A DNA stretch of 64,000 bases from Candidatus Nomurabacteria bacterium (GTDB lineage Bacteria > Patescibacteriota > Patescibacteriia > HK-STAS-PATE-3): the NCBI GenBank assembly GCA_023898465.1, contig CP060223.1, forward strand, positions 416,001-480,000, written 5' to 3'. The notes below the pieces were generated by a model that saw nothing but the letters and a program-made list of their open reading frames with translations, had not been told where the DNA came from and ran no database searches. Every line of letters begins with the position of its first letter. The stretch's first letter is position 1. Position numbers and translations under genes: made by a program. Below, piece after piece: positions 5,312-45,936 of this stretch.

Positions 5312-6514
5312 ATGTCGATTTTTACGTATACTGGAGTAAAAGCGGGTAAAAAGGTAAAAGGCAGCGTTGTTGCTGATACTCAAGAGCAAGCAAAGGCGCA
5401 AATTGAGACCAAGGGCTTGCAAATCAATGGCTTGAAAGAAGAAGCGCCTAAATCAGGTGTAATGGATAGGCTTTTGAACCGAGTTTCGATTGTTCAGAAG
5501 CTTTTTTTCACACAAAACCTTGAGGTAATGATACGTACGGGCTTTTCTCTTAGTCTTGCCCTGCAAACTCTCGCGCAGCAAATTAGCAATAAGCGCTTTC
5601 AGTGGATTATTGCGCAGATGACCAGCGATGTCCGGTCTGGAAAAACCTTTGCCTCAGCCCTAGAAAAGCACAAAGATGTGTTTAGTGAAGTTTTTGTGAG
5701 CATGATTGCAACTGGTGAATCGAGCGGTAAATTGCAGGAGGTCCTGAAACGACTTGCGGTGCAGCTAAAGAAAGATCATTTGCTTGTTGCAAAGGTAAAA
5801 AACGCGCTCACCTATCCTGTTATTGTCGTGGTTGCTATGGTCGCAATAGGCATAGCGGTAACTGTCTTTGTTGTACCTAAATTGGTCACTGTTTTTGAGG
5901 AAAGTAATGTAGAACTTCCACTTCCGACAAAAATTCTCATCACAACAAGCGACGTATTGATTCATTACGGATATCTCATCGCAATTGGCGTAGCACTCGC
6001 CGTTGTCGGATTTTTACGCCTCCTAAAGCTGAATAAAGTGCGCTATACCATGGATCGGCTTATTTTGAAGTTACCCATAGCTGGTCAAATAGTGAAAAAA
6101 ATTCACTTGGCTCAACTTACTCGTACTCTCTCTTCACTACTTGAGACTGATATACATATTGTTGAGAGCTTTCAAATTATTGCTCGGACAATGTCAAACA
6201 GTCAGTATCGCTTAGCCATAGAACAAGCAGCTGAAAAACTAAAAACTGGCTCAACAATTGCTACTGTGCTTGGCGAGCATCCTGATTTATTTACCCCGAT
6301 TCTCATACAAATGGTAACAGTTGGAGAACAAAGTGGATCTCTTGATCAAATCGCCAACGAGGTTGCTGACTTCTATGAATCAGATGTAGATGACACGATG
6401 AGTAATTTATCGACTATCATTGAGCCAATACTCATGCTCTTGCTGGGTGGCGCGGTCGCGCTTCTCGCGGTGTCGATTATTCTCCCCATCTATCAACTCA
6501 CCGAAGCCATTTGA
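5312..6514 (+). CDS. pilC: type IV pilus inner-membrane platform protein (GspF/PilC family)
   Basis: 400 aa. Two repeated GspF-like domains with 3 TM helices. It sits immediately after pilB with a 2-nt gap. Confidence 0.85.
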   Translation: MSIFTYTGVKAGKKVKGSVVADTQEQAKAQIETKGLQINGLKEEAPKSGVMDRLLNRVSIVQKLFFTQNLEVMIRTGFSLSLALQTLAQQISNKRFQWIIAQMTSDVRSGKTFASALEKHKDVFSEVFVSMIATGESSGKLQEVLKRLAVQLKKDHLLVAKVKNALTYPVIVVVAMVAIGIAVTVFVVPKLVTVFEESNVELPLPTKILITTSDVLIHYGYLIAIGVALAVVGFLRLLKLNKVRYTMDRLILKLPIAGQIVKKIHLAQLTRTLSSLLETDIHIVESFQIIARTMSNSQYRLAIEQAAEKLKTGSTIATVLGEHPDLFTPILIQMVTVGEQSGSLDQIANEVADFYESDVDDTMSNLSTIIEPILMLLLGGAVALLAVSIILPIYQLTEAI

Positions 6515-8718: not shown

Positions 8719-9317
8719 TAAATAGACAAGGGTTTACCATGCTTGAAGTGACGGTTACCATTGCGATATTTAGTTTTATTATGGTTGGAGTACTTTCTTT
8801 TATTGCCTCAAGCTACCAATCCTATTTTAAACTTAACGATCGCACCTCAACCTTGAGTAAAGGTCGGAGTGCAATGGAACGTATGTTAAAAGAAATTCGA
8901 GGTGCGCGTGAAAGTTCCCTTGGCGCTTATCCAATTAATTCAGCTACGGCAAATGAATTCATCTTTTACGCAAATATTGATAGCGATGATCTCACTGAGC
9001 GTGTTCGCTACACGCTGAGCGGAAGCACGCTATCACGTGGTGTTATCAAGCCTGTCGGCACTCCTCTCCAGTATCTCCCTGCAAATGAAGTTGTGAGTAA
9101 TCTCGCGACTGATATTTATAACGGCGCAACGCCAACCTTCGCCTATTATGATGACACCTATACCGGCAGTGAAGCTGCACTTAGTTTTCCAGTAACTGCA
9201 ACAAATGTGCGTTATGTGCAATTTACCTTAAAGGTTGATGAAACGCCCGGTTCACCTCCCGAAGCTGTTGAATTAGTCTCCTCGGCAACTATTCGAAATT
9301 TAAAAGATAACCTCTAG
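8715..9317 (+). CDS. minor (pseudo)pilin with prepilin-type N-terminal methylation domain
   Basis: 200 aa. N-terminus RQG|FTMLEVTVTIAIFSFIMVGVL has Gly-1, Phe+1 and Glu+5. It overlaps the preceding gene by 4 nt. Confidence 0.6.
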   Translation: MINRQGFTMLEVTVTIAIFSFIMVGVLSFIASSYQSYFKLNDRTSTLSKGRSAMERMLKEIRGARESSLGAYPINSATANEFIFYANIDSDDLTERVRYTLSGSTLSRGVIKPVGTPLQYLPANEVVSNLATDIYNGATPTFAYYDDTYTGSEAALSFPVTATNVRYVQFTLKVDETPGSPPEAVELVSSATIRNLKDNL

Positions 9318-11176
9318 TGAAAATTCCTCGATTACAAAATCAGAGCGGAGTTGAACTCATCATGCTGATTGTGATGAGCGGTGTGTTGCTTTCCATTTTC
9401 ACGGCTGGATTTCTCCTAATTAATGCAGAAAAGCGTTTAACTATCCGATCAGCCGATCGTGAACGAGTGCACGCTATTGCGGAGGCGGGTATTAATTATT
9501 ACCGTTGGCATTTAGCACATAGTCCAGAGGACTATACCGATGGCGATGATATTTTACTTGATGATATTTCTCGGGCAGGATATACCGAAGCCTATCTCGA
9601 CCTTGGCTCTCAATACTATAGCGATGCCACATCCACATTACTTAGTATTCCCGCCTCTCTCGACCAGGCTCTCTGGTTAAGGACAAAACAAGCTGATGCT
9701 GCAGACACATCTGATTCCTTTTTGAGCTTTTGGGTAAATCGACCAGTTATTGTCTCTATTGGTTACGATAATCGTGGTACGGCTCCAACTTGGCTAAGCG
9801 GATCATTCACCGACTCTGGCCAACAAATCCAAGTAAGTGATGCTGGGGCATCTCCGCTGCGTGTTTGGCAAAAACAATTCTCAGCTGGCTCCAGCGTACT
9901 TTTAGGTGGTAATCTAGCCTCTGGAGCAAGTGGCGCACTCTCCATGTACACGATTACACTCACTCCAGTCGATTCAAGCGGTCCGTTTATTCATCCCTAT
10001 ACTGATTTTGATGGAAATGTGATTGGAAGATATAGCATCACTGTGACACCACCTAGCCTAGGTAGCACGATTACCACCGTGAGCTCTACAGGCTACTTAT
10101 TAAGTAGTGAAAAAAGTACACGAACGATAATTGCGCGTTTTGGCATCCCCTCTTTATCTGAGTATGCAGTTGTTGCCAACGATGTTATGCGTTTTGGTGA
10201 AGGCACAGAAACCTTTGGCAAGATACATTCTAACTATGGCATTCGCTTTGATGGACTCGCGCATGGACTTATTACGAGCGCATGCAGCACTTATGATGAT
10301 CCAGATCATAGCGGCCCACAGGAGGATTGCGTACATACTCATCAGCCAAATCCTAATACTGTTTTTGAGGGTGGACGTGAATTTCCCGTTGCCCCAGTAG
10401 ACTTCAATGGCATCACGGGTGATTTAGCAACCCTGAAGACTGCTGCACAAGAACCAAGCGGCGTATACTTATCCCCCTCAGGAGTCCAGGGCTATCATAT
10501 AACACTAAAAACGAACGGGACAATGGACATGCGCCGTGTAACATCTCAAGCGAGCTGCTTATACCGCAGTGGATCATGGCATGCCTATCCTGATGTATTC
10601 TCAATTGGAAATCAAAGTAATTTTACTTACGAAGGTGGGAGTTCTCTCAATGTACCTTTCCCGGCTAATGGAATAATTTTTGCTGAAGATAATATTTGGA
10701 TCGATGGAAGTATTGATAATGCAAAACTTACTATTGTTGCCGCAGAGGAGCCTCTGGCCAGTGGAAATGCAAACATTATTGTAAATAATGATCTCCACTA
10801 CACAAATGAAGATGGCACGGATACCATAGGGCTTATTGCTCAAAATGACTTTCATATTGGCTTCTACAGTGAGGATAATTTAGAGATTGATGCTGCGATT
10901 ATCGCCCAAAAAGGACGGGTGGGTCGTCCCTACTATGCCGACTATGGTTTGCCAAATAACCGCTATAGTCCAAATGCATGTGGAGACTATGTCCACAGGG
11001 ATACCGTCACACTTGATGGCTCAATCGCTACTAATGAGCGATATGGATTTGCCTACACTGACGACACTGGATATCAAAACCGAAATTTGTATTTTGACGA
11101 TAATCTCATTTTTGGTCCTCCCCCCTTATTCCCGACAAGCGGAGAATACGTTATGATTAGTTGGGAAGAACAATAG
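9317..11176 (+). CDS. large pilus-associated protein with PilX-like hydrophobic N-terminus (possible tip/minor pilin)
   Basis: 619 aa with a GTG start. The N-terminus QSGVELIMLIVMSGVLLSIFTAGFLL resembles PilX_N-type non-canonical prepilin leaders. It lies in the operon between the minor pilin and pilM. Weak call. Confidence 0.4.
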   Translation: MKIPRLQNQSGVELIMLIVMSGVLLSIFTAGFLLINAEKRLTIRSADRERVHAIAEAGINYYRWHLAHSPEDYTDGDDILLDDISRAGYTEAYLDLGSQYYSDATSTLLSIPASLDQALWLRTKQADAADTSDSFLSFWVNRPVIVSIGYDNRGTAPTWLSGSFTDSGQQIQVSDAGASPLRVWQKQFSAGSSVLLGGNLASGASGALSMYTITLTPVDSSGPFIHPYTDFDGNVIGRYSITVTPPSLGSTITTVSSTGYLLSSEKSTRTIIARFGIPSLSEYAVVANDVMRFGEGTETFGKIHSNYGIRFDGLAHGLITSACSTYDDPDHSGPQEDCVHTHQPNPNTVFEGGREFPVAPVDFNGITGDLATLKTAAQEPSGVYLSPSGVQGYHITLKTNGTMDMRRVTSQASCLYRSGSWHAYPDVFSIGNQSNFTYEGGSSLNVPFPANGIIFAEDNIWIDGSIDNAKLTIVAAEEPLASGNANIIVNNDLHYTNEDGTDTIGLIAQNDFHIGFYSEDNLEIDAAIIAQKGRVGRPYYADYGLPNNRYSPNACGDYVHRDTVTLDGSIATNERYGFAYTDDTGYQNRNLYFDDNLIFGPPPLFPTSGEYVMISWEEQ

Positions 11177-11177
11177 T

Positions 11178-12227
11178 ATGCCACTACCTAATTTCTCAAA
11201 TGCCTTTGGTTTAGAAATACGTGACACGGAAATACGCGTGGCACAGATTCACCGTCATGGAAAAAAGCTCTCTCTTTCTTCTTATGGTTTTTCGCAAATA
11301 CCAAACGGCGCAATGGAGCGAGGAGAGATCCTTAAATCTGATCAAGTAAAGTTAGCTATCCTCAACGCGCTTAAGTCACCTGTTGGGAAAAATTTTAGCA
11401 GTCAGTATGTAGTATGCGCTATTCCTGAGCAGCACGTTTTTACCACAGTCATCACTCTGCCGGCAAAAAAAAGTATTGAGAAAGACGACGTACAAGCTGC
11501 TGCACTACAGCAAATCCCCTATCCATTAGAAGATATTCAACTTGACTGGACTTTGGTAGATAAAGACGCAAAAACAAATTATATCCTTGTAGGGGCTGCC
11601 CCAAAAAACATAATTGCTGCGTATACTCAGGTACTTCGATCGGCGAATCTTATTCCAGTCGCTCTAGAGCCTCAGTCATCATCCATAGCGCGCGCTCTAC
11701 TGACCTCACATGACGCACAAACCCCAACCATGGTGCTGCACTTTGGACAAAAGCTCCTTACTATCTTTATCGTAAATAAAAACGTAGTATATTTTTCATC
11801 CTCTACGCCTATTTTTTCAGGTGAATCGATTATCAGTCTACTCAGTAAAAAGCTTGATTTAAATGCTGATAAGGCACGGAAGGCTGCTCAGTTATTCGGA
11901 TTACAAGCCAAAGAAGGAAAAGGCGAGGTGCGACGCGCACTTCTTCCTGAAATAAGTGCCTTAATGGAACATATTGAACAAATAAAAGAGTACTCAAGTA
12001 GCCACTTACCCGCTCCGGTGCATAACATCAGCACCATGCTAGTAACCGGAGAAATGAGCTCACTGCCTGGCCTAGCTGAATACCTACAGGAAGAGCTGCG
12101 CATACCAATTCAGCCAGGCTTACCTGGTGAGCGATATCAGCTTGAGATACCACAGAAGGAGCTTACATCGCTTGATCTGCAGTCCTCTGCTACGGTCTTA
12201 GGATTAGCTTTGCACGAACTCGCATGA
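11178..12227 (+). CDS. pilM: type IV pilus assembly protein PilM (actin-like ATPase fold)
   Basis: 349 aa. The N-terminal block FGLEIRDTEIRVAQI is typical of PilM/FtsA-like proteins. It is followed by PilN/PilO-like genes. Confidence 0.8.
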   Translation: MPLPNFSNAFGLEIRDTEIRVAQIHRHGKKLSLSSYGFSQIPNGAMERGEILKSDQVKLAILNALKSPVGKNFSSQYVVCAIPEQHVFTTVITLPAKKSIEKDDVQAAALQQIPYPLEDIQLDWTLVDKDAKTNYILVGAAPKNIIAAYTQVLRSANLIPVALEPQSSSIARALLTSHDAQTPTMVLHFGQKLLTIFIVNKNVVYFSSSTPIFSGESIISLLSKKLDLNADKARKAAQLFGLQAKEGKGEVRRALLPEISALMEHIEQIKEYSSSHLPAPVHNISTMLVTGEMSSLPGLAEYLQEELRIPIQPGLPGERYQLEIPQKELTSLDLQSSATVLGLALHELA

Positions 12228-12784
12228 AATCACTTAACTTTCTATTTCAAGAAGATCGCCAGGCCCTCCAAAGAGCTTATCAAGAGTTGCGTTTTCAGCA
12301 CACGTCTCTGCTTATTGTATTAAGCGTTGGACTCATTTCCGGACTTGTTTGGGGTACCAACCAGCTCCTTCATGTACGCATTCAACAACTTGACGATGAA
12401 ATCCAATCCACCCAGCAAACCGAACTCGTGCAGCAAACTACTGCCGCTGAATCAAAGGTGCGTGAGTTTAATACTCTAGTAAAGTTTTTTAGTGAAGAGA
12501 CAGAACTCATCTTTCCCCTCAGTGATCGTGTTGCTGAAATTAGTAAGATAATTCCCACAGGAATAAAAGTAGATCAACTTAGCTTAAATATGAATGCAAA
12601 ACAGCTTACCTTAGCTGGCAGCGCAAGCAACCGTGATAGTTACCTTTCCCTACGTGATGCACTAGCAAACACTGGATGGTTTGAGAGCGTGGAATTACCA
12701 ATTACAGATCTACTTAGCCGGGAAAATATCCGCTTTACGCTGCAGACTGATTTAACCGATGAGTTTTTTAACATAAGCAAATGA
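12224..12784 (+). CDS. pilN: PilN-like pilus assembly protein (single TM plus coiled coil)
   Basis: 186 aa with one N-proximal TM (LLIVLSVGLISGLVWG) and a coiled-coil/periplasmic domain. It is in the operon position after pilM and overlaps it by 4 nt. Confidence 0.5.
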   Translation: MKSLNFLFQEDRQALQRAYQELRFQHTSLLIVLSVGLISGLVWGTNQLLHVRIQQLDDEIQSTQQTELVQQTTAAESKVREFNTLVKFFSEETELIFPLSDRVAEISKIIPTGIKVDQLSLNMNAKQLTLAGSASNRDSYLSLRDALANTGWFESVELPITDLLSRENIRFTLQTDLTDEFFNISK

Positions 12785-23603: not shown

Positions 23604-23972
23604 GTGAAGTCCAGGCAAAAAACGGGTCCGATTTCAAGATATCTTGCTTGGTGCACTTCACGAGAGGCCACTGAGCAAGAACGCCGAGACAGGCTAAAGC
23701 AGCGTCTTTCAGGGGCAATCCCACGCGGTACCTGCCAGTGGCTGCGCGAAGAATGCGACATACCGATCGATGGACTCTTCAAGAAAGAAAGCATCACGGT
23801 CCTAATTACTAGAAGAGGTCCTGGAGCAAAAGCTCTTGGTCTCTCGCCTGAACTCAAAGGGACTGATGAGCAACTCAGAGCTCTCCAGGCTGCTTGGCGA
23901 GGCGCAATCACAGTTACCTGGCAATGGACTGAGGATCGAAGCACTCTGCGTATTAGCTTCAAGCGGGCTTAA
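23604..23972 (+). CDS. small basic hypothetical protein (high-G+C island 1)
   Basis: 122 aa with a GTG start. An RBS AAGGAG lies 7 nt upstream. Arg-rich, no motif recognised. It is followed by the hairpin/T-tract at 24003-24038. Confidence 0.35.
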   Translation: MKSRQKTGPISRYLAWCTSREATEQERRDRLKQRLSGAIPRGTCQWLREECDIPIDGLFKKESITVLITRRGPGAKALGLSPELKGTDEQLRALQAAWRGAITVTWQWTEDRSTLRISFKRA

Positions 23973-24002
23973 TCCTCAATACTCACCACAACAAAGACCT
24001 GT

Positions 24003-24038
24003 TCGACGTTTGTTCGCAGGTCTTTCCTTATTGACAAA
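24003..24038 (+). terminator. putative rho-independent terminator
   Basis: Perfect 8-bp stem aagacctg/caggtctt with a 15-nt loop, followed by TTTCCTT. Confidence 0.35.
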
Positions 24039-24039
24039 A

Positions 24040-24068
24040 ATGAGGTTTTGGACTATATTACCTCGTTC
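24040..24068 (+). promoter_or_regulatory. near-consensus sigma70 promoter: -35 TTGACA (24040-24045), 17-nt spacer, -10 TATATT (24063-24068)
   Basis: It is followed by AGGAGG (24101-24106) and a GTG/ATG start of the first gene of the paralogous pair. Confidence 0.45.
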
Positions 24069-24114
24069 TTTACATCCGTCTAGTACCGTGCAGGAGGGCG
24101 AACAAGTGCCAGTA

Positions 24115-24447
24115 AAAAAGATGGTGAAGATTATGAACCACGTTGAAATCCTGAAAAACACTCCGCTCCTTCGGGAGTTCCGCTTGGCAACTGCTGAGGA
24201 TATCGCGCCAGGAGCAGAGCTGTTCGAGGCTGAGGTGGGCTTTGATCTCAGAATTGAACAACCACGTCGGATCCGTCTGGCCGACGAACCGATACAAGAA
24301 GCTTACGGAGAAGATCATGTGGTCTACTCCCAGGCCAATGGCCTGAAGGACCTTACGGTCACCGTACAACGCTTCCTGTCCACCGAAGCAGAACCTGAGA
24401 CCCTCTTCCCACACCGCTACACAATCCTCTACCTCGTCAAGATCTAG
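24115..24447 (+). CDS. hypothetical protein, paralog 1 of a tandem pair (island 1)
   Basis: About 110 aa. Start is GTG 24115 (RBS AGGAGG 8 nt upstream) or ATG 24130. It shares ILxxxPxLxxxRLxTxxDxxPGAxL at the N-terminus and EAExxxxxxTxLYLxK at the C-terminus with the next ORF. The long 5' extension in the ORF track lies upstream of the promoter and is rejected. Confidence 0.5.
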   Translation, partial: KKMVKIMNHVEILKNTPLLREFRLATAEDIAPGAELFEAEVGFDLRIEQPRRIRLADEPIQEAYGEDHVVYSQANGLKDLTVTVQRFLSTEAEPETLFPHRYTILYLVKI

Positions 24448-24477
24448 CGCTCACAGGGCTTCCACCAAGGAGGATTC

Positions 24478-24801
24478 ATGTCCACGATGATCAACCGTCA
24501 AGATATCCTGAACCGGGCACCGGATCTTCCGGGTCGCCGCTTGGTCACCCGAGACGAAGTGATCCCGGGCGCGAAGCTCGATATGGTTCATGTTGACCTG
24601 GACGGCAAGGCTCAGTGGCTTCAGCCGATCCAGATCGACGAAGAAGCCACCGGTGAGCGGGTAGGCACGACCTACGTGTTCTACCACTGCGACGGTCATC
24701 CCAGTCAGTGCTTCGTCCCCTTCGATGATTTCGTTGGTGTCGAGGTGGAAGCAGAGAGCTGCGGACCCTTCCTCACCACCCTCTACCTCGCGAAAAACTG
24801 A
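24478..24801 (+). CDS. hypothetical protein, paralog 2 of a tandem pair (island 1)
   Basis: 107 aa with a perfect AGGAGG 5 nt before the ATG. Conserved blocks are shared with the upstream ORF (MINRQDILNRAPDLPGRRLVTRDEVIPGAKL / ...TTLYLAKN). Confidence 0.55.
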   Translation: MSTMINRQDILNRAPDLPGRRLVTRDEVIPGAKLDMVHVDLDGKAQWLQPIQIDEEATGERVGTTYVFYHCDGHPSQCFVPFDDFVGVEVEAESCGPFLTTLYLAKN

Positions 24802-24860
24802 CCCCCCTCAAAGCCGCCAATATCACTTCATGTGTGAGGCGGCTTTTTCATTAAACAAAC

Positions 24861-24892
24861 GACAGGGCACAGAGGCCCTGTCTATCTGTTTT
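24861..24892. terminator. bidirectional rho-independent terminator between convergent paralog-2 and ahcY
   Basis: Perfect 8-bp stem gacagggc/gccctgtc with loop acagag, then TATCTGTTTT on the + strand and GTTTGTTT on the - strand. A second, weaker hairpin (aagccgcc/ggcggctt + TTTTT) lies at 24812-24848. Confidence 0.5.
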
Positions 24893-24959
24893 ACAAAGTT
24901 ATGCAAATTTAGATTACTGCTTCCGGTCGTAGTGCAGCTTCATTGCTACTCATAACTTC

Positions 24960-27175
<2,216 letters not shown>

Positions 27176-36688: not shown

Positions 36689-37819
36689 CCTAGTTGCGAA
36701 TAAACGCTACGAAGCTTCTGTCCGATTTCCTGCCAGTCATAGCGTTGACGGGCTAAGTTCTGACCAGCTTCACCTAGCTGACGCGCGTAATCATCATTGC
36801 TCAATATCGCTCGTATTGCGTCCTCAAGCGCGTGCGTATTTCCTGGAGGATATAAAATGCCACCTACCCCATTTTCAGTAACTTCGAGGGTGGGTGGCAA
36901 CTCGCTACTTACATAAGGCGTGCCAAGGGCCATTGCTTCAGCCAAGACAATCCCAAAGCCCTCAACTGAGGAAGGGAGACAGAGAATATGACTCTTTGCC
37001 ATTGTTTCTAAGACATCGACATGTTTTTCCACGAAGCCGGAAAAATGCACTCGATCCGAAACACCCAGCTGCTCAGTTAGGGCTTCTAACTTGGCTTGCT
37101 GTGGACCGCTACCGATAATTTTCACCTGCAGATTTGGCATATCATTCCGCAGCTCAGCTACTACTTCCAATAAATCAGGTATACGTTTGTAATTCACTAG
37201 GCGGCCAACAAAACAAATAGTTGGGTCATCATAGCGTTCAAGGTTTTTAGGCAGACGAGTGAAGTCAACTCCGTTTGGTATTACGGCAATACGCTTTGGA
37301 TCCATACCATGCCGCAATAGCTTCGCACGAGTAGCGGTACTCACTGCGATAACTTTATCCCAAAGGAATTTTAAAAAGCGGCGTTCTACAAATTCACCGA
37401 AGAGACTAGAAGAAAACCAAGGTTAGCCCGCCACTCACCTATCCACACATCATGATAGGTTGCTACCGCGCGAATTTTCTTTTTCTTGGCAATAGTGATA
37501 GCTGCTTGATAAAGCAGGAAATTTGTCCCCTCAACTACGTCAATATCTTTTTTAAGCGCAGTTGCAATCACATTACGCATAAATATGTAGCGCTTCAGTA
37601 AACCGCCTGATTGAGTGAAAGAACGCGAGGACCGCAACGAATAACCTCAATACCAGGTAGTGGTTCCTGAGTCAGGTGTCCTTCTTGTGCGGCAATGACA
37701 GTTACTTTATGCTCTTTTGCTAACTCTAGTGCCGAGTAATATGTGCGTGCTTCTACACCGCCCCGAAAATCAAGATCTGCTGTGTATGGGAAAAATTCTG
37801 CAAGAATGAGGATCTTCAT
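36685..37819 (-). pseudogene. GT4 glycosyltransferase disrupted by two or more frameshifts (three ORF fragments)
   Basis: The N-terminal fragment 37595-37819 (MKILILAEFFPYTADLDFRGGVEARTYY...), the middle 37386-37637 and the C-terminal 36685-37344 (...CLPSSVEGFGIVLAEAMALGTPYVSS) are consecutive GT4 segments in three different frames. The C-terminal frame continues upstream as ...GEFVERRFLKFLWDKVIAVSTATRAK without an ATG. Confidence 0.55.
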
Positions 37820-37820
37820 A

Positions 37821-38132
37821 TTATTCTTTTTTATCCGTTTCTTTACGTAGTGCTAACTCGCGGACAATCGTGGTTATCTCCTGTTCCAAATGTTCAATCT
37901 TCATCATCACTCGGAACAGCGCATACACTAAACCAATGACCGAGATGTAGAGAATAGCATCGACGCCTCGTCCAACGCCGAGGAATTTAGCAAGATACTC
38001 AGTTAATCGAGGTAAAAGGACTATAACACTGATGCCCAGCCAAATAAGAAGCCAAAAAAGAATTCTTTGGCAGTAATATCCTTTTTGCGTAACGATATGC
38101 AGTCCGTACAACCACGAAGAAGGCAAACACAA
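37821..38132 (-). CDS. small 3-TM membrane protein with C-terminal charged helix (DUF2304-like partner of polyprenyl-phosphate GT2 enzymes?)
   Basis: 103 aa. It lies immediately downstream of the GT2 (dolichol-P-sugar synthase-like) pseudogene. The family call is tentative. Confidence 0.35.
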   Translation of the reverse strand: MCLPSSWLYGLHIVTQKGYYCQRILFWLLIWLGISVIVLLPRLTEYLAKFLGVGRGVDAILYISVIGLVYALFRVMMKIEHLEQEITTIVRELALRKETDKKE

Positions 38133-38158
38133 TAACGAGAATCTGTATCAGCATAGTC

Positions 38159-38840
38159 TTATTTCAATAATCGAAGTAATAACAATCGAAAAAAAGTTCT
38201 TACACCCTCTCCAAAACTCTGTCCTTTTGACATTGAGTATTCAGTATAGATTGCAGCAATTGGCACTTCGCTTAGACGGAAAGCGTGCCGCTTCACCTCA
38301 TACATTATTTCCGTAGACACCTCCATGCGATTTGACTGCAGATGCAGGGTGCGAGCAGCCTGTCGAGTAAACTCCCGGAGGCCTGACTGACTATCACTCG
38401 TCTGTAATCCAAACATGAATAAGGTGATCCGATTTCCTATCGCGTTATACAGCCGACGACGCAAAGGCATCCTAGGCTGCGTCTTATCGCGGACAAGCAT
38501 ACGTGAGCCTACAACAACATCAGCTACACCTTTTTCAAGCGGCTCAATAATGCGTAGTATATCTTTTGCTTCATGCTGACCGTCAGCATCAAAGGTAACA
38601 ATGTATTCTGCGCCAGCTCGGATGGCAGCCTGAATGCCGGTAGCAAGCGCTCCACCAAGACCTCGATTAATGAGGTGGCGATACACCCGTGCACCTGCTG
38701 CTTGAGCTATCTGACCACTACCGTCACTAGAACCATCGTCAATAACAAAACATCCGGCGTGACTGCACGGACTGCGCGCACCACATCAGATATAGTCTTT
38801 GCTTCGTTAAATGCAGGAATAACAATTGCCACCTTCATGG
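38159..38840 (-). pseudogene. GT2 polyprenyl-phosphate sugar synthase (Dpm1/GtrB/ArnC-like), frameshifted near 38750
   Basis: A reverse-complement ATG at 38838-38840 gives MKVAIVIPAFNEAKTISDVVRAVRAV, then the frame breaks. A second frame continues AGCFVIDDGSSDGSGQIAQAAGARVYRHLINRGLGGALA..DADGQH into the 175-aa ORF 38159-38686. Confidence 0.55.
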
Positions 38841-38987
38841 CACAAATTACTCTACTAAAAAGCGGTCAAAAATGCAAGGGGTCACGCTATAAAAAATCCA
38901 AACTTAGCGTGCTGATTAATAAAAACAACGTGCCTTTGTGATCACGCCTATTGTGACTTGTCACTTTAGCCACTATGATGATACCGA

Positions 38988-40267
38988 ATGCCACTCCCAA
39001 ATCCGCAACTCCAAAACTTATATACTGACGCAAAAAAGGATTTTACCTTAGCCTTTCGCACTGGGATGCTGCACCTATTAAGCAGTTCCGGTATTGTCCA
39101 AATCTCTGGCTTTGTGGTTACACTTGTGCTTGTCCGCGTGCTCAGCACGGAATCGGTCGGGCATATTCGCCTCATTCATTCCGTACTGGACTTTCTCATC
39201 CTCTTAGGTGATTTTGGCTTAGCCATGGCGATGTTGAAATATATTGCCGAGCCAAATGACGAGGAGGAGAAAAAATCACTGCTTAGTCATGCCAGTTACG
39301 GAATTCTTTTCACTTCTTTGCTCACAGCCCTTCTGGCTTTTGGACTAAGCTTTATACCAAACTTAATTGGCGATGCGACAGCGCAAGCAGCGTTACGTTG
39401 GATGGTTTGGCTGATCCCCTTGCGACGCTTTTGGCATAGTTGTGCACTGGGAACATGGCCGAAAAAGAATCAAGCAAAAAGCATGGTATGAATTAGCCCA
39501 GCGGCTTGTACTTGTTGTCCTTACCTTAGGTGGACTTCTTTACGCTGGATATTCAGGATACCTCTACGGATTCGCTATTGGTATGGCACTTGTGACGCTT
39601 ATTTTACTGAGCCGACTACCCCAAGGCTGGTGGAGCCATCGTATGTAAAAGAAAAAATGCGCAAGCTTTTTGCTTTTGGCTGGTACGCCATGCTGGCCAA
39701 TCAATTCCAAGTTGTTGTAGTAACTGCTGATGTCGTCATGATTAGTTTACTCACTCGCGATGCGGTTGATGTGGGAATCTACAGTGTGATGGCGCTTTCA
39801 TCCGAGGACTTTGGATACTTCCAAATGCCATCATGCAAACTGCGCTTCCATATCTCTCGGAACAATCTGCTGATACGAATCAATTACAACAGAGCATCAA
39901 ACGGATCAGCACAAAATGGCCATGCTGATGCTGCCACTCTGCGCCTTACTTTTCTCCTGGCTCCCACGCTTATCCCTTACTCTTTGGAAGAGACTACGAG
40001 AGTGGAATAAAGGTCTTTCAGGTTCTGATCCTCTCACTCTTTTTCAGCTCATTGGCCATGGTCAACTATACCGCGCTTTTAAGTTTAGGTAAGGTAAAAT
40101 TTAACTTTTATACAGTACTTATTGAAGCCCTAGTCAACATTGTCTTGAATTACTGGCTGATTTCGCAACTTGGGATGATCGGTGCTGCCTGGGCAACAGT
40201 GGTCACCTTTGCACTACGGTATGGGATAAACTCATTTTTCCTCCGACGACAGCTTAAAACTGCTTGA
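38988..40267 (+). pseudogene. Wzx-like oligosaccharide flippase (MOP superfamily) broken into four ORF fragments
   Basis: The ORFs 38988-39491, 39442-39648, 39630-40010 and 40052-40267 are sequential segments of one polytopic MOP/Wzx-type protein in different frames. They need at least three frameshifts to join. Confidence 0.5.
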
Positions 40268-40366
40268 CAAAATAGAGGGATTTGCTAATTTCTGCGTGAC
40301 GGTGGCGACCTGACAAAGGGGCCGCTGTATTCATGTTGAGTAAAGTACTCACATGAGGCACGCACG

Positions 40367-40396
40367 TTGACAATCTAAACTAACGAAGCGTAAGTT
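40367..40396 (+). promoter_or_regulatory. sigma70-like promoter of island 2: -35 TTGACA (40367-40372), 18-nt spacer, -10 TAAGTT (40391-40396)
   Basis: It is followed by RBS GGGAGG (40405-40410) and ATG 40415. Confidence 0.4.
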
Positions 40397-40414
40397 GCGC
40401 GTTTGGGAGGATGC

Positions 40415-40960
40415 ATGAAAACGCTCAGTTTTTTGCTGATGTTGCTTAGCTTTGGCTTGGCAACACCGAGCTTGGCACAGCTCACGCTGCGCCATGGGAC
40501 ACTCATGCCAGGTAATGGTATGAGTGAATCAGCGCAATACCGTCTGGTGAGCGTCATCGGATGGGCTGACCTTAGCCAACATGCCGATACTACTTGGGTA
40601 CTGATCGAAGGGCCGTGGATTCCTCGGAACCATGACACCTCGGCAGTGGGAGGACCTGAAACTCAGGCACACCGCCTAAGCCTCTCGAACATTCAACCCA
40701 ATCCGATTGGTCAATCCGGTCTGATTCACTTCAATGTCCCTGGGATCAATGGAGAGAAATCGCCCCTTACCATGGCAATCTATGACGTCACCGGGCGTCG
40801 AGTACGCACACTGGTCTCAGGCGAGATGCAATCCGGTCCACAGGTTGCTATCTGGGATGGACGAGACGACAGTGGAAAGGCGCTGGCGAATGGCATCTAT
40901 TGGTGCCAAATTCAGTGCAAAAACAACAGGGCAACCAAAAAGCTGGCGGTTATCCGCTAA
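40415..40960 (+). CDS. secreted small protein consisting of signal peptide, short linker and a T9SS-type/FlgD-Ig-like C-terminal sorting domain (island 2)
   Basis: A signal peptide MKTLSFLLMLLSFGLATPSLA. The C-terminal about 90 aa (LSNIQPNPIGQSGLIHFNVPG...LTMAIYDVTGRRVRTLVSGEMQSGPQVAIWDGRDDSGKALANGIYWCQIQCKNNRATKKLAVIR) follows the por-secretion CTD / FlgD_ig pattern (NPF..T.I.F.L......V.L.IYD..GR.VRTL......G.H...WDG.D..G..V.SGVY.Y.L..G....TKKM.L.K). High G+C. Confidence 0.6.
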   Translation: MKTLSFLLMLLSFGLATPSLAQLTLRHGTLMPGNGMSESAQYRLVSVIGWADLSQHADTTWVLIEGPWIPRNHDTSAVGGPETQAHRLSLSNIQPNPIGQSGLIHFNVPGINGEKSPLTMAIYDVTGRRVRTLVSGEMQSGPQVAIWDGRDDSGKALANGIYWCQIQCKNNRATKKLAVIR

Positions 40961-40978
40961 GTAGAAGGAGATGAGATC

Positions 40979-42502
40979 ATGTTGAAGTTCCAGAGTCTCT
41001 GTATTTTGGTGGCGCTTTGTTGTGCCACGCTCGTCTTTGCTTCTGTGCCAAACCTGCTCACCTACCAGGGCTACTTGGAAGATGGTGGACAGGCAGCCAA
41101 CGGCAGCTACAACGTCACCTTCCTGCTCTACGATCAGGCAAGTGGCGGTACCAGCCTCTGGGAAGAAGTACAAACCGGTCTCGCGGTCCAGGACGGACTC
41201 ATGCAGTCATACCTCGGCCGGATCACGCCGCTTCCCAGCAACCTCGATGAGATCGAAACCCTCTATCTCAGCGTCGTTGTGCAGGGTGACACTCTGCAAT
41301 CACGCACCGAGCTCGCTTCTGTCCCCTACGCCTTCCGCGCCAAGCTATCTGAACACGCAGTCTATGCTGATTCGGCCGGAAATGGCGGAGATAGTGGTAG
41401 TGGATTCTGGGCAGCGAACGGCAACGATATCCATAACACCAATTCTGGGTTTGTGGGGATCGGGACGGAGAATCCAAACGAGCCCCTACATGTTGAAGGA
41501 CAAGGCATAGATTGGGCTGCCAGATTCACAAACAGTGATGGAAGCAGCAGCTCAGACGTGCGCTTGGCCTACAGAACTGGCGCTGGCATCTACATGAACA
41601 CCACTGGAACTACTAGTGGGTACTTCATGAACTTGAAGCATGAAGATCTCACAAAGGTCTATCTCACGAAGTCAGGCTACCTTGGGCTTGGTACGGATGG
41701 TCCAATTTCACAGCTCCACGTGGTGAACCCGGTCAACGCGGGGGCTGGAAACATCTTCAACATCGACCGAACGAACGACGTCACAAAGCAAACCTACATG
41801 GGCTTCCGTACGCACACGCTGCAGGACGCCTTCATAGGTGTGCCGGCAAACACGACCAACACGCTCACCTTTGGGTATGCCGGAAGCGCCGAGCTTATGC
41901 GTTACAACGCAAACGGGCTCGGTATTCGCACCACCAATCCGCAATTCACACTCGATGTGAACGGGAATACCAATTCAAGTCAGTACTACCTGGCCGGGCA
42001 CCAGATCGCCTACACTACTGGCGGCGGATCTCTCTTTCGTCTCAAGGACCCAAGCGGTGCAGACCGTGTTGAGTTCCAGGGGAACGGAGGCGATCTGCTC
42101 TTGGTGGGACCTGTCCGTATCAACGGCGACCTCTGCGTCACTGGTCAGAAAAACCGTATTGTGGAAACACCTTACGGCACTCTGGCTTTGAATGCTGAGG
42201 AATCGGCCGAAGCTTGGTTCTCTGCCAGCGGCGAAAGTCAGCTGGAAAACGGCCGAGCCCAAGTCGAGCTGTCTGAACGCTTCCTCGCGACCGTGGTCGT
42301 TTCTGATGAGCATCCTATGCAAGTCAACGCGACCTTCTATGGAGCGCACGGCGGCGGATGGTACGTGGAGCGTGGGCTGAACAGCTTCACTCTCGTCGAC
42401 CCCAGCGGGAGTAATGCACCGTTCACTTGGACGGTCAAAGCTCGCCAAAAAGGTTACGAAGACGTGAATCTCCGCGTTGTCGCGCCAACAGATGGGAGGT
42501 GA
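40979..42502 (+). CDS. secreted tail-fibre-like repeat protein (peptidase S74 / endosialidase-chaperone-type GIGT...LHV repeats) (island 2)
   Basis: A signal peptide is present. The N-terminal LTYQGYLEDGGQAANGSYNVTFLLYD..SGGTSLWEE block matches a phage-fibre-like motif. Three repeats of the G-[FYL]-[VLG]-G-[IL]-[GR]-T-x-x-P-x-x-x-L-[HD]-V motif occur (NSGFVGIGTENPNEPLHV; SGYLGLGTDGPISQLHV; NGLGIRTTNPQFTLDV). Confidence 0.55.
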   Translation: MLKFQSLCILVALCCATLVFASVPNLLTYQGYLEDGGQAANGSYNVTFLLYDQASGGTSLWEEVQTGLAVQDGLMQSYLGRITPLPSNLDEIETLYLSVVVQGDTLQSRTELASVPYAFRAKLSEHAVYADSAGNGGDSGSGFWAANGNDIHNTNSGFVGIGTENPNEPLHVEGQGIDWAARFTNSDGSSSSDVRLAYRTGAGIYMNTTGTTSGYFMNLKHEDLTKVYLTKSGYLGLGTDGPISQLHVVNPVNAGAGNIFNIDRTNDVTKQTYMGFRTHTLQDAFIGVPANTTNTLTFGYAGSAELMRYNANGLGIRTTNPQFTLDVNGNTNSSQYYLAGHQIAYTTGGGSLFRLKDPSGADRVEFQGNGGDLLLVGPVRINGDLCVTGQKNRIVETPYGTLALNAEESAEAWFSASGESQLENGRAQVELSERFLATVVVSDEHPMQVNATFYGAHGGGWYVERGLNSFTLVDPSGSNAPFTWTVKARQKGYEDVNLRVVAPTDGR

Positions 42503-42505
42503 GGG

Positions 42506-44284
42506 ATGAGATGGATTCTCTCGGTCCTACTCCTGGCTCTTGCGAGTAGTGCCTTTGCCGTACAACCAAATCTTCAGCTTCCCTTTGCTGAAGGGACCGT
42601 TCACAAATGTACGCAAGGTGCCAATGGCGAGTACTCACATCAGTACACTTCAACACGTTACGACATCGATCTAGACACGATCAACAATGGCGATGAAACG
42701 TTGTACGCCCCAGTATCCGGAACCGTCTATCTGCATGATGAAGGTGAATCCGGATTCGGAAAACACGTAAACATCGACGTTGGAGACAACACTTTTGTTC
42801 TCCTTGGGCATTGCAAGAGCTTTCTTGTTTCTGATGGACAGCAGATAACAACAGGGATGCCTGTTGCGCTTGAAGGCTGTACAGGAAATTGTTACGGTGA
42901 TCATGTACACTTTGGTCTGCACACTGGAAACCCTCAGATAGGCGCTTCAAGTAGCACATCAATTGTTGCCGAACACATCTGGGCTAGGGATGTGACCGCG
43001 GGTGGAGAATTTCGATTCTTCCGAAGCGATGAATTCATAGGCGATTTGACTAGTGGCCACAACTACGAGACTGGCTATTTAGGCACACCCTACCTCTGTT
43101 CTCCTGCTGGTCAAGATCCACCCGCTGCCCCGCCATTCTGGACCAAGCCTGGCGACATCAAATCATACTTGGCGAGATTCAGAAATACGGGAACGGCAAC
43201 GTGGATTGATAGCGGAGGCGTTGGTACGAATAACTACGTTGAACTACGATCGGTGTTTCAGAACGGCACACCCAAAAACTGTTGGCTTGAGCCAGTAGAT
43301 TGGATTGGGTGCCCTGCATCCTGCAACACTCAACGAGTAACCTCGTTTGACGAAGGGACAGTCGCTCCTGGTCAAACTGCAACATTCACCTTCCAGGCAC
43401 GAACACCAAATGTTCCAACTGACCTTGACGGTGAAGTAGTGTACTTCCGCCCCTTCCACGGAGCAGACATCGGAATCGACGGATGGGGGGAGATGAACTT
43501 CCTTATCTATGTCGACGCCGACGCGCCGCAGGTCCCGCCGAACTTGAGCGTGAACCCGTCAGACTGCACGAGCACCAACTCGTTCTTCTTTGACTGGGAT
43601 GCTTCGAGCGACGTGGGTAGTGGACTGGATCTCTACGAGTGGCAAATCAACGGATCTACACCGAACTCCACGACTAGTACTTCGGTACAAGTGAATGGGA
43701 GTCAAAGCGTTCACCCGGGCACCAACGTCTTCTACGTCAGAGCCTTGGATAAGGTCGGAAACGTGAGTGGAATGGCCACGGTGGAATTCTGCTTCGAAAC
43801 CGACTGCAACCTCAGCTTCAACCGAGACGACGACGGCAATAGTGTGCCTGACGGATGGACGGCTGACCCTCATGGAGGTTCAAGCTATAGCTGGCCGCCT
43901 GGAGGCATTGGAAGCAACTCACACTACGTACGTATTGTGAACGCTGATGGAGATGATTGGATGATCTATACTCGCACCAACTGCGATCAGATCACGCCAG
44001 GACAACTCTACCGAATCGGCTTCTGGTACAACACCACCTCCACGGCTCCGTTCGAGTGGGCACTGTTCAAGAGTAGTGTTTCAACTGGTCAACGAAGTCT
44101 GAACGCCCTCGTGAGCAACCCAACCGCAGACGGGCAGTGGCATCAATTCCAAAGTGAACCCTTCACAATCAACTCCGGCGACCTCAGCACCTACCCGAAA
44201 TTCGGGGTAAAGGTACCGCCGGGATCTGTCGGAACCTTCAACTTCGACGAGGTCTTCTTCGTTGAAACTGAGCTGTGTCAATAG
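42506..44284 (+). CDS. secreted M23-family metallopeptidase with Fn3/Ig-like and CBM-like (jelly-roll) C-terminal domains (island 2)
   Basis: A signal peptide MRWILSVLLLALASSAFA. M23/LytM motifs are H-x3-D (HQYTSTRYDID) and HxH (GDHVHFGLH) around LYAPVSGTV / VALEGCTGNCYGDHVHFGLH. An Fn3-like block follows (PNLSVNPSDCTSTNSFFFDWDASSD...YEWQINGS...VFYVRALDKVGNVSG), and the C-terminal about 170 aa has a CBM4/9-like pattern. Confidence 0.6.
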   Translation: MRWILSVLLLALASSAFAVQPNLQLPFAEGTVHKCTQGANGEYSHQYTSTRYDIDLDTINNGDETLYAPVSGTVYLHDEGESGFGKHVNIDVGDNTFVLLGHCKSFLVSDGQQITTGMPVALEGCTGNCYGDHVHFGLHTGNPQIGASSSTSIVAEHIWARDVTAGGEFRFFRSDEFIGDLTSGHNYETGYLGTPYLCSPAGQDPPAAPPFWTKPGDIKSYLARFRNTGTATWIDSGGVGTNNYVELRSVFQNGTPKNCWLEPVDWIGCPASCNTQRVTSFDEGTVAPGQTATFTFQARTPNVPTDLDGEVVYFRPFHGADIGIDGWGEMNFLIYVDADAPQVPPNLSVNPSDCTSTNSFFFDWDASSDVGSGLDLYEWQINGSTPNSTTSTSVQVNGSQSVHPGTNVFYVRALDKVGNVSGMATVEFCFETDCNLSFNRDDDGNSVPDGWTADPHGGSSYSWPPGGIGSNSHYVRIVNADGDDWMIYTRTNCDQITPGQLYRIGFWYNTTSTAPFEWALFKSSVSTGQRSLNALVSNPTADGQWHQFQSEPFTINSGDLSTYPKFGVKVPPGSVGTFNFDEVFFVETELCQ

Positions 44285-44320
44285 CTTGGAGGGGCTATTC
44301 CAGCATACATCGCACTTTCA

Positions 44321-44357
44321 CGCGCCTTCAGGCCAGCAACTTGGAGGCGCGTTTTTC
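44321..44357 (+). terminator. putative rho-independent terminator ending island 2
   Basis: Stem cgcgcct/aggcgcg (7 bp) with a 17-nt loop, followed by TTTTTC. Confidence 0.35.
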
Positions 44358-44424
44358 TTACTTTTCAAAATGACCAATTTTTAGTATACTCTAGCCTGAA
44401 CTTTTATCCTTTTTTTGCCAAAAA

Positions 44425-45936
44425 ATGTCAGAAAAACAAGAGAAGGCCAGTCGCTACCTCATTTCTATAGTAATTGGCTTTTTTATTGTATTTGGATTGG
44501 GTTTGCTAAACAAAAACCTTGCGTTTTTTGGTCAAAATCTTAGTTTTTCCCTTGATTTTCCTGCAAATGATAAGGTGCTCAGAGCTCTTCCAGCCATCAA
44601 TGAAACTACAGAAATTGGCGAGAACCCTGCAAACGGGAAGCAGTACGCGATTCAACGTCATACCATAACGACGCCCGAGACCAATATTTGGCTAAAAATA
44701 CCAGAAACACTGCAGTTAAGCGAAAAAAATCATCTCAGCGTTTCAACTGAATTTGATCCCAAACACCTCGATAGTTTAGAGCTTTCACTCGTCCACCCCA
44801 GTGGAATTAGCTATGACCTAGGGCCAATATACTCCGCCCAGCTCGAAGCTCTAGAGTGGAGCTCAATCACCCAGGACGGCGTTACTCTGTGGCAACGAAA
44901 CCCAAGCTACGCATCCATACAGGATTTCTACAAAAACCCACCGAAATCTGATGCAGAAACGCCTGTAATTGCCACTTTTCATGCCGCTCTCAATCCAGTG
45001 CTCCAGAGCGAATTTCTCGCTAATCTTCCTGAAAAAAAGCAATTAGAAAGTTCCCTACCCTATCTCGAGGGACCTTATACAACCTATACCCTGCTATTGG
45101 AAAGCGGCTCTCTTCATATTCACCTAGATGTACAGGAGCTTAATTTTTACGAAGGACCAGATCCGACCGAAATAAACGTTTTTGATCAATCTGGTGAGCT
45201 AATATATGTCACCACGCTTCCAGATGATGGCGTAGTAAGCGCCTCTAAAGTTCGAACCCCACTTCGTGCTATAGATTTTACCCTCGAGGGGCTTAATCCT
45301 GGAATGTATCGAGTTGAGGTTGATAATCCAGATATTCAGTCAAAACTAAGCACAAATCAACAATATGTTGTTTTAGCAAGCTCCCCGTTGCTTGTTGATA
45401 ACGTGTATAACAGCAGCGCAAATCCTCTAACTCTATACACAAATTCTCAAAATATTGATTTTCCTGCCTGGCATATTGACGCCAGCGCACAAAATATCAG
45501 TTTAGATGGTCACCAGATAACACTCGCTTCTGACCGACAAGTTGGCAGCTCAGTGCACTACAGCTTCCCTAACCTCGCTACAGCAAAAAATCCACACAGT
45601 ATTCAATTAGGTACCAATCATGCACTTATTGAAATAGATAAAAGCGCTGTTATTGCTTTTGATGCATTTGCTTATTTTAACCCTTTTACTATCCCAACTC
45701 GTCGTCTCACTGCCGATACTACCAAAGATACTTCAATAGAATACGTCTTAGCACGTTACGAAAAACAAAATCCGGTGAATGGAAGATACTTGCTGAATCG
45801 CGATTTCTACTTTGATAAAAGCTTCCTCAACGAAGACAATGGCCTGCAAATACGCTATAGCGCTGATACTCGCCTGGGATCCCCTCAATATCGCCTGCAA
45901 AAAGTTGACGTCTCAATCACTCGCTCTACTGAATAA
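44425..45936 (+). CDS. membrane-anchored hypothetical protein with large extracytoplasmic domain
   Basis: 503 aa with an N-terminal TM (YLISIVIGFFIVFGLGLL), then an Asn/Ser/Thr-rich soluble region. Backbone-like low G+C. Confidence 0.5.
   Translation: MSEKQEKASRYLISIVIGFFIVFGLGLLNKNLAFFGQNLSFSLDFPANDKVLRALPAINETTEIGENPANGKQYAIQRHTITTPETNIWLKIPETLQLSEKNHLSVSTEFDPKHLDSLELSLVHPSGISYDLGPIYSAQLEALEWSSITQDGVTLWQRNPSYASIQDFYKNPPKSDAETPVIATFHAALNPVLQSEFLANLPEKKQLESSLPYLEGPYTTYTLLLESGSLHIHLDVQELNFYEGPDPTEINVFDQSGELIYVTTLPDDGVVSASKVRTPLRAIDFTLEGLNPGMYRVEVDNPDIQSKLSTNQQYVVLASSPLLVDNVYNSSANPLTLYTNSQNIDFPAWHIDASAQNISLDGHQITLASDRQVGSSVHYSFPNLATAKNPHSIQLGTNHALIEIDKSAVIAFDAFAYFNPFTIPTRRLTADTTKDTSIEYVLARYEKQNPVNGRYLLNRDFYFDKSFLNEDNGLQIRYSADTRLGSPQYRLQKVDVSITRSTE

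Follow-up and report, generated by a model that had tools for sequence, protein, structure and literature searches.

What does a block of compositionally foreign genes, each encoding a protein predicted to be exported, do in the genome of a member of the Candidate Phyla Radiation (CPR, or Patescibacteria), and where did it come from? The block lies within a 64,000-nt stretch of DNA (hereafter the window) of a Candidatus Nomurabacteria metagenome-assembled genome (MAG) whose G+C content is 43%; the window spans positions 416,001–480,000 of the forward strand of contig CP060223.1 (assembly GCA_023898465.1), and all coordinates below are window positions unless a locus is named. Three co-directional open reading frames (ORFs) on the + strand, together occupying 40415–44284, make up the island, and encode P1 (40415–40960), P2 (40979–42502) and P3 (42506–44284), proteins of 181, 507 and 592 amino acids, respectively. 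Here we present evidence that these genes are a recurrent cassette and not a chance trio, that P2 is a remote relative of the mosaic adhesive trimeric (MAT) fibers with which Bdellovibrio bacteriovorus grasps its prey, and that the island is most economically explained by transfer from a CPR lineage of higher G+C content. With middling confidence we propose that the island is a horizontally exchanged module for attaching to a host cell and breaching its wall.

Composition, signals and junctions of the island

The island genes stand apart from their surroundings in base composition and codon usage. Their G+C contents (0.532, 0.555 and 0.519 for P1, P2 and P3, respectively) exceed that of the backbone (0.426 ± 0.033), and their G+C contents at third codon positions (GC3; 0.559, 0.630 and 0.546) exceed that of 49 backbone ORFs (0.381 ± 0.044) with z-scores of 3.8–5.7. 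The G+C content at first codon positions is the same in island and backbone, and the rise falls mainly at synonymous sites. Consistent with these differences, the relative synonymous codon usage (RSCU) of the island genes correlates with that of the backbone at only 0.03–0.23 (z-scores of −4.9 to −7.2 relative to the 0.65 ± 0.09 of backbone genes), and when G+C content is computed in 200-nt segments the island boundaries are sharp, at ~40300 and ~44300. These values bear out a sequence-only reading made earlier from the letters of this DNA, which had described a foreign, high-G+C unit of three genes and had counted by hand ~40% G+C for pilB and ~37% for a glycan cluster, close to the 0.428 that we computed for pilB and the 0.34–0.40 for the glycan genes at 48–57 kb. 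That reading also had the lengths of P2 and P3 right and, in setting P1 at 180 amino acids, missed its length by one residue. P1 would have 185 residues if an upstream TTG were used as the start codon; the gene call in a sister assembly supports the 181-residue start, an ATG at 40415 behind the Shine-Dalgarno sequence GGGAGGA (40405–40411, + strand).

Putative expression signals bracket the three genes, which are separated by gaps of 3–21 nt. Upstream of P1 lies the promoter-like element TTGACA-N18-TAAGTT (40367–40396, + strand), which had been picked out by eye as the promoter; the sequence is as described and its −35 hexamer is perfect, but its −10 hexamer is weak (3/6 matches) and the promoter scanner did not accept the element. 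Downstream of P3, the hairpin noted earlier proved to have a 13-bp stem with 8 G-C pairs, a 7-nt loop and a T-tract (44320–44362, + strand), making it a strong candidate for an intrinsic terminator. All three proteins begin with the expected signal peptide, of typical Sec type, with a basic n-region, a 12-residue hydrophobic core (hydropathy 2.4–2.9) and the cleavage motifs SLA, VFA and AFA.

The abrupt step in G+C content at both ends of the island, together with a patch of consensus errors just upstream in the window assembly, might suggest that the assembler joined a high-G+C segment from another organism to this contig. However, two Logan short-read assemblies from separate, independent runs (SRR12358675 and SRR12358676) carry the island at the same place and reproduce both junctions, at 40.2–40.4 and 44.3–44.4 kb; over 18.7–21.5 kb, which spans both sides of the island, they share 99.85% identity with the window. 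Moreover, the boundaries fall at the promoter-like element and the terminator and not at contig ends. Because the two independent assemblies carry the same junctions, a chimeric join or contamination is very unlikely, with a chance close to nil. P2 is identical to H6760_02250, a protein recorded as "MAG: hypothetical protein" of Candidatus Nomurabacteria bacterium.

The three genes recur as an ordered cassette

Profile searches of fetched loci placed the cassette in eight cellular loci, in a conserved order: a P1-family gene, then one or two fiber genes whose products carry both end domains of P2, then a gene for a hydrolase bearing a P3-type tail (one locus, L007, is taken up below). P1 orthologs (25–33% identity) lie directly 5′ of the fiber gene in every locus not truncated there. 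The cassette is present once in the window and in tandem in L002, L004 and L013. Judged by this gene order, the genes are a recurrent cassette. Six viral loci, by comparison, contain the tip domain of the fiber only, inside tail proteins of 700–1,270 residues; these six loci lack P1, the fiber N-domain and the tail of the hydrolase, and a search of viral sequences with the P3 tail found nothing.

The cassette may also carry its own expression signals. The box TTGACAAY, which in the window occupies 40367–40374, recurs upstream of P1-family genes, exactly in L002 (twice, at ~3700 and ~7880) and L007 (~7390), and with one mismatch in L006 (~3960) and L012 (~7380), and a GGAGG-type ribosome-binding site likewise precedes P1 orthologs. 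From the recurrence of both elements, the promoter may well move together with the cassette.

Every relative that bears a taxon name belongs to the Patescibacteria. The best match to P2, P0018 (6e-92), comes from a MAG named "Patescibacteria group bacterium", where it lies among genes for SecY, Adk, Map, DnaB and RecR; L006, the single locus returned by a profile search of genome contigs with the fiber C-domain alignment, is from Ca. Kerfeldbacteria, as is P0178. A full-text literature search returned no report of MAT-like fibers, T9SS-type C-terminal domains (T9SS, type IX secretion system) or this cassette in Patescibacteria. What is new is the fixed three-component cassette in a lineage not known to have an outer membrane; the fiber family itself is known.

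P2 resembles the MAT fibers of Bdellovibrio

An alignment of 18 full-length relatives divides P2 into a signal peptide (residues 1–22), a conserved β-rich N-domain (residues 23–125, 41045–41353), a variable shaft (residues 140–335, 41396–41983) and a conserved C-terminal β-sandwich tip (residues 375–500, 42101–42478). The shaft units have the form GxVGIGTxxP...L.V; P2 has three of these GIGT repeats, at residues 157–172, 233–248 and 313–327 (41447–41494, 41675–41722 and 41915–41959), the third of which is degenerate. In an AlphaFold (AF2) model of the monomer both end domains are β-rich and have a predicted local distance difference test (pLDDT) score of about 90, with the N-domain confident over residues 23–115 and the tip above 90. 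P2 matched no Pfam domain. An exhaustive HMMER search found 25,169 cluster representatives of the family at E ≤ 1e-3. They are proteins of 172–2,722 residues, and what they have in common with P2 varies among them: the N-terminal ~130 residues alone, the repeats alone, or the C-terminal ~130 residues alone.

Among known systems, P2 comes closest to the MAT fibers of B. bacteriovorus, in particular their non-S74 subgroup (Caulton et al. 2024, PMC10769870). When compared with the sequences of the Protein Data Bank (PDB), the 18-member family profile matched 8ond (Bd2133) at 1.4e-17 and 8oml at 3.4e-11, as well as 8ojn, 8on4 and 8ol4; the alignments, to five distinct MAT fiber sequences, run through the GIGT-repeat region. 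In addition, the MAT N-domain model NF053851 (Bdello_MAT_N) matches 14 of the 18 relatives of P2, the best at 8e-8. As defined in print, MAT fibers have a β-rich, conserved N-domain of ~130 residues behind their signal peptide, then a trimeric shaft and an exchangeable tip of S74 or non-S74 type (PMC10769870). In P2, as in these fibers, the signal peptide leads straight into a conserved β-rich N-domain, the shaft consists of GxVGIGTxxP...L.V units and the β-sandwich tip is exchangeable and folds independently, and in both cases the modules are mosaic across a very large family. Unlike typical MAT proteins, which have ~1,000 residues, P2 has 507; its homology to them is seen at profile level only, with an N-domain score below the curated cut-off; and its tip is one common to the PblB-like tail proteins of siphophages. 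The organisms differ as well. P2 belongs to a CPR bacterium, expected to lack an outer membrane. The MAT proteins of Table S3 in that study, by contrast, come from diderm groups, mostly recorded as predators or predator groupings (Oligoflexia, PVC, Alphaproteobacteria, Bradymonadaceae/Myxococcales, FCB and Omnitrophica), none of them CPR (PMC10769870). Finally, the fiber described here belongs to a fixed cassette with a partner resembling the immunoglobulin (Ig) domain of FlgD and a modular hydrolase, and the available sections of the MAT study describe no such cassette (PMC10769870).

P2 also resembles the tail fibers and receptor-binding proteins of phages. Its shaft and tip match PHROG tail and tail-fiber families, BFVD models of tail proteins, cyanophage fibers and PblB-like tail proteins of Enterococcus phages. 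The tail-fiber likeness and the three repeats had both been recognized from the letters, and both stand; the S74 chaperone proposed alongside them does not. Peptidase_S74 (PF13884) gave no match in P2 at E ≤ 1, and we rejected that identity accordingly. Within the family PF13884 occurs only in the distant members P0006 and P0007. S74 domains are marked by an SDxxxK motif; the C-domain of P2 carries the motif LCVTGxKNRxV and a fold assignment other than S74. Foldseek returned only weak matches between P2 and PDB structures, none at E ≤ 1e-3. Going by its sequence relationships, P2 is a non-S74, MAT-like fiber and a remote member of a known family.

P1 is a small protein with a FlgD-Ig/T9SS-type domain

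P1 consists of a signal peptide (residues 1–22), an N-segment of ~70 residues (23–94) that ends in a GPW/GFW motif, and a β-sandwich (residues 95–181, 40697–40957) akin to the FlgD Ig domain and the type-A C-terminal domain (CTD) of T9SS cargo. This assignment, made earlier by eye, is supported by hidden Markov models (HMMs): P1 scores above the cut-offs of both FlgD_ig (PF13860; 4.8e-10, 39.7 bits against 27) and the T9SS type-A sorting domain TIGR04183 (26.8 bits against 23), and just below that of PF18962 (24.4 bits against 27). A comparison with PDB sequences likewise matched an Ig domain of FlgD at 5e-6. Residues 95–181 carry the signature P..NP…IYDVxGRxV…WDGRDDxG…G(V/I)Y shared with these domains, and orthologs have the full QNxPNPF form. 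Unlike T9SS cargo, however, P1 has a "cargo" of only ~70 residues and is always paired with a fiber gene.

T9SS-dependent secretion of P1 was considered and rejected: the host is a CPR bacterium, and, as had been noted before, no T9SS gene turned up among the scanned ORFs of the window, which covers 64 kb of a contig of ~1.08 Mb. Neither an outer membrane nor a T9SS is known from CPR cells. For these reasons a T9SS function of the CTD in a CPR cell is implausible, and the domain is probably structural and not a secretion signal. Its constant pairing with a fiber gene, seen in other CPR genomes too, also suggests such a structural or adaptor role. In L013, a 1,581-residue Kelch/β-propeller repeat protein adjoining a cassette (2052–6797 of that locus) matches the P1-family (CTD-type) HMM at 4.5e-16, and a giant surface protein of that genome therefore bears the same CTD fold.

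P3 is a predicted modular wall hydrolase

Behind its signal peptide (residues 1–18), P3 has an M23 head (residues 22–190, 42569–43075) and a tail of ~380 residues. The head is an M23 peptidase by HMM and by fold, as the sequence-only reading had proposed. In particular, Peptidase_M23 (PF01551) matches P3 at 1.9e-13 (50.8 bits against a gathering threshold of 28.7), a comparison with PDB sequences matched StM23 at 1e-9, and Foldseek matched the head to EnpA, ShyA, StM23, LytM, LasA and lysostaphin at 6e-6 to 1e-4 and also to zoocin A. The residues expected to form its active site are H45, D55/D57, H102, H133 and H135, and within the P3 subfamily H102 (of a GH motif) and H133-x-H135 are invariant. 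P3 thus resembles the M23 bacteriolysins and their kin (lysostaphin, LytM, LasA, zoocin A, EnpA and StM23) in fold, in its HxH and GH histidines and in the fusion of the head to putative wall- or glycan-binding modules. It differs from them in having H45-x11-D57 in place of HxxxD, and in its rare three-domain tail.

The Fn3-like and carbohydrate-binding module (CBM)-like character ascribed earlier to the tail finds support at the level of fold, where Foldseek matched a CBM, the Bacteroides surface glycan-binding protein B (SGBP-B) and FnIII arrays. Three domains can be distinguished. Domain A (residues 211–343, 43136–43534) is poorly modelled in the structure prediction and aligns with the PF16158 (N_BRCA1_IG) stretch of the relative P0181. 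Domain B (residues 344–432, 43535–43801) gives OmpL47-type and fn3-type signals, and domain C (residues 433–592, 43802–44281), a CBM-like jelly roll, gives a weak match to CBM_4_9. The only difference within the island between the window and both Logan assemblies falls in domain C, at 43887 (A in the window, C in the others), the second position of P3 codon 461, and is non-synonymous.

Tails of this type are rare; a word-indexed search of 5.8 billion proteins found ~7. Where they occur, they are joined to different heads. In L002 and L004 the tail keeps 39–48% identity but follows different heads, and across the cassettes the conserved tail carries M23 heads of different subfamilies (21–24% identity), CHAP heads or NAGPA heads, with head exchange seen even among close cassettes.

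The cassette has probably moved between CPR lineages

Codon usage links the island to cassettes elsewhere. Its RSCU correlates at 0.60–0.61 with the Kerfeldbacteria locus L006 and with the cassettes of L002, and at 0.60 with the flanks of L006, compared with 0.12 for its own backbone. In L006 (55% G+C) and L007 (49% G+C) the GC3 of the cassette is in line with that of its flanks. The cassette of L005 (1117–6191 of that locus) has a GC3 of 0.78–0.86, below the 0.95–0.97 of its flanks, a hint of foreign origin in that genome as well, and the cassettes of L002 (3798–10094) have a GC3 of 0.68–0.78 against 0.51–0.63 for the adjacent glycan genes. The most economical reading of these compositions is that the island was transferred from a higher-G+C CPR lineage into this Nomurabacteria genome. 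Because all named relatives are Patescibacteria, the donor was likely another CPR lineage of this kind, and not a T9SS-bearing organism or a phage.

Proposed function and alternative explanations

Beyond type IV pili, the factors by which Patescibacteria attach to their hosts are largely unknown (PMC11665869, PMC12206443). We suggest that the three proteins would be exported by the Sec pathway from a self-contained operon of promoter-like element, three genes and predicted terminator. P2, presumably as a trimer, would form a short surface fiber of the kind represented by Bdellovibrio MAT proteins and phage tail fibers, its N-domain holding it on the surface of the producer and its β-sandwich tip binding a ligand on another cell. 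P1 may be a surface adaptor or an assembly partner of the fiber N-domain, with the CTD fold reused in the absence of a T9SS. The Ig-, Fn3- and CBM-like tail of P3 could position the M23 endopeptidase on the fiber or on the target wall, where peptidoglycan would be cut locally, and exchange of the head among M23 subfamilies, CHAP and NAGPA could direct the enzyme at walls of differing chemistry. In combination, these activities would allow an episymbiont to recognize, hold and locally breach a host cell. A fiber paired with an M23 wall hydrolase recalls the adsorption and penetration hardware of phages. Our main reason for preferring a host-directed role over a self-directed one is the swapping of heads among M23, CHAP and NAGPA, which would be expected for varied foreign walls. 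Of the earlier proposal of a horizontally acquired module for host attack or attachment, the foreign composition is thus established, and attachment and attack are the best available reading.

A more specific version, which we put forward tentatively and consider somewhat doubtful, is a dedicated, horizontally exchanged "grip-and-cut" organelle of episymbiotic CPR bacteria. In it, P1 would be the surface partner of the MAT-type N-domain, and the conserved three-domain tail of P3 type would serve to mount interchangeable lytic heads on the fiber, whose binding would bring a wall cutter to the site of host contact. If this were so, a phage-adsorption apparatus would have been rebuilt as a Sec-exported cellular system without an outer membrane or a T9SS.

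Several observations weigh against the host-directed proposal and the relationships on which it is built. The target of P3 could also be the producer's own wall. The canonical HxxxD motif of M23 enzymes is replaced in the P3 subfamily by a conserved YSH45...D55xD57 (H45-x11-D57), the spacing of which may correspond to a LasA-type H-x12-D, and activity is not assured. Locus L007 has a P1–fiber pair without a hydrolase. As for the fiber, P2 itself reaches 19.4 bits with NF053851 (E = 7e-4), well short of the curated cut-off of 60 bits, the shaft has a pLDDT below 50 in the monomer model, and the profile match to MAT fibers depends largely on short GIGT units that are also present in phage fibers. 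P2 alone gave no meaningful match to PDB sequences and did not reach the MAT structures, which is why we call the relation remote. As for transfer, no integrase, transposase, flanking direct repeat, tRNA or Rfam family was found at the island or in the scanned window ORFs, and five of the eight cassette loci (L002, L004, L005, L012 and L013) lie on metagenome contigs that carry no taxonomic assignment. The cassette is present in other CPR genomes, but no island-free relative emerged, exact look-ups of both downstream genes returning the same strain only. With neither mobility genes nor an empty site, the case for transfer therefore rests on composition and distribution. A search of JGI metagenome contigs with the intact Wzx flippase encoded beside the island and a 503-residue protein encoded downstream of it also returned no relatives.

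The uncertainty about the target of P3 gives room for the idea that the whole assembly is self-directed, an ordinary appendage or envelope part that is perhaps tied to the glycan cluster, with the hydrolase acting as an autolysin during fiber insertion or division. The island does lie inside an envelope-glycan region of ~40 kb, and L002 also adjoins glycan genes; glycan made by the producer itself is a conceivable ligand of the CBM-like tail; a role in division is common among M23 proteins, and the NCBIfam matches of P3 include EnvC, DipM, ShyA and MepM; and a fiber without a hydrolase, as in L007, would be no anomaly. However, only two of the eight loci adjoin glycan genes, and the exchange of heads on a conserved tail would be unexpected for an enzyme tied to its own wall. 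The modules of the fiber, moreover, are the ones that make up receptor-binding proteins of phages and the MAT adhesins of predators, and the foreign composition of the island argues that it is dispensable for the basic envelope. We therefore regard a self-directed role as unlikely. The same head swapping would suit the changing target range of an interbacterial weapon, a secreted, fiber-targeted lysin resembling a bacteriocin or minimal tailocin that kills competitors and does not serve attachment to a host; horizontal mobility is typical of weapon loci, and the bacteriolytic M23 enzymes lysostaphin, zoocin A and LasA are among the fold matches of P3. Against this, the three genes include no evident immunity gene, CPR bacteria rely on hosts and do not compete as free-living cells (PMC11665869), and the MAT study describes the N-domain as a module for retention on the producer's surface (PMC10769870), which argues against a released toxin. 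We consider such a weapon quite unlikely.

The phage-like features of P2 and P3 raise the further question of whether the island is simply the leftover tail fiber and tail lysin of a prophage, or other phage-borne cargo, with no cellular role. In addition to the shaft and tip of P2, P3 matches PHROG families of phage peptidases, endolysins and tape-measure proteins; tail proteins on six IMG/VR contigs, as well as PblB-like proteins of Enterococcus phages, contain the tip domain; and the composition is foreign. Sec signals on all three proteins would nevertheless be unusual for virion proteins, and, unlike loci for phage fibers, the island has no S74 domain, and no integrase, att repeat, tRNA or further phage or virion gene accompanies it. 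The viral loci lack P1, the N-domain and the tail, P1 has no counterpart in PHROGs, and the tips of viral relatives are 31–36% identical to that of P2 compared with 47–59% for cellular relatives. Since the cassette also lies among housekeeping genes in other genomes, we consider a phage remnant improbable.

The cassette offers three clonable candidates (an adhesive fiber, its partner and a lytic enzyme) for the little-known means by which CPR bacteria exploit their hosts (PMC11665869, PMC12206443), and head swapping together with foreign composition in several hosts points to an exchangeable host-range module. It also carries the recently described fiber family of predators into a lineage whose cell envelope differs from theirs. 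The MAT study gives the surface element bound by the MAT N-domain as unknown (PMC10769870), and the strictly conserved partner gene suggests an answer.

Genomic surroundings and neighboring consensus errors

A type IV pilus cluster at 3582–12227 encodes PilB, PilC, PilM and a 735-residue N-methyl pilin-like protein with a CarboxypepD_reg domain; in the Kerfeldbacteria locus L006, pilin-like genes (10368–12400 of that locus) lie within ~3 kb of the cassette. From 20083 to 63958 the window forms one long envelope-glycan region, with genes for RmlA-D, many glycosyltransferases of families GT2 and GT4, PMT_2, Wzx, an ABC exporter, DegT, WbqC, an ATP-grasp protein, a sulfotransferase and methyltransferases. 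The part of this region at 48–57 kb has a G+C content below that of the rest of the backbone and may therefore itself be exchangeable. Just downstream of the island, at 44425–45936, is the gene for the 503-residue protein mentioned above, which has an N-terminal membrane anchor, host-like G+C content and a promoter-like site at 44362–44390; it matched no Pfam, NCBIfam or PHROG family. A second, milder rise in G+C content, at 23836–26216, comprises a 203-residue ORF with a TTG start (GC3 of 0.54, no Pfam family) and an AdoHcy hydrolase gene (GC3 of 0.46).

The glycan genes on the upstream side of the island had been described as decayed, and a recombination hot spot had been suggested there. 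Comparison with the Logan assemblies led us to reject real decay. The window differs from these assemblies at 29 positions, and SRR12358675 and SRR12358676 agree with each other at all 29. Twelve of the differences are one-base deletions in the window, all within 37409–39974 (a stretch outside the cassette) and mostly in short runs of the same base; only two substitutions accompany them there. In the window alone these deletions break the genes for a GT4 glycosyltransferase (378 residues), a DUF2304 protein, a GT2 glycosyltransferase (226 residues) and the Wzx flippase (428 residues), all four of which are intact in both other assemblies. The frameshifts are thus almost certainly consensus errors of the window assembly, and neither pseudogenes nor a recombination scar, and in this stretch the MAG consensus was probably left unpolished. 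As a practical matter, the apparent pseudogenes beside the island in this MAG should not be taken for biology. Bordering the error-rich stretch, at 37282–37381 within the GT4 gene, the window differs from both Logan assemblies by 14 substitutions in 100 bp, a cluster that looks like a strain-variant or recombination tract.

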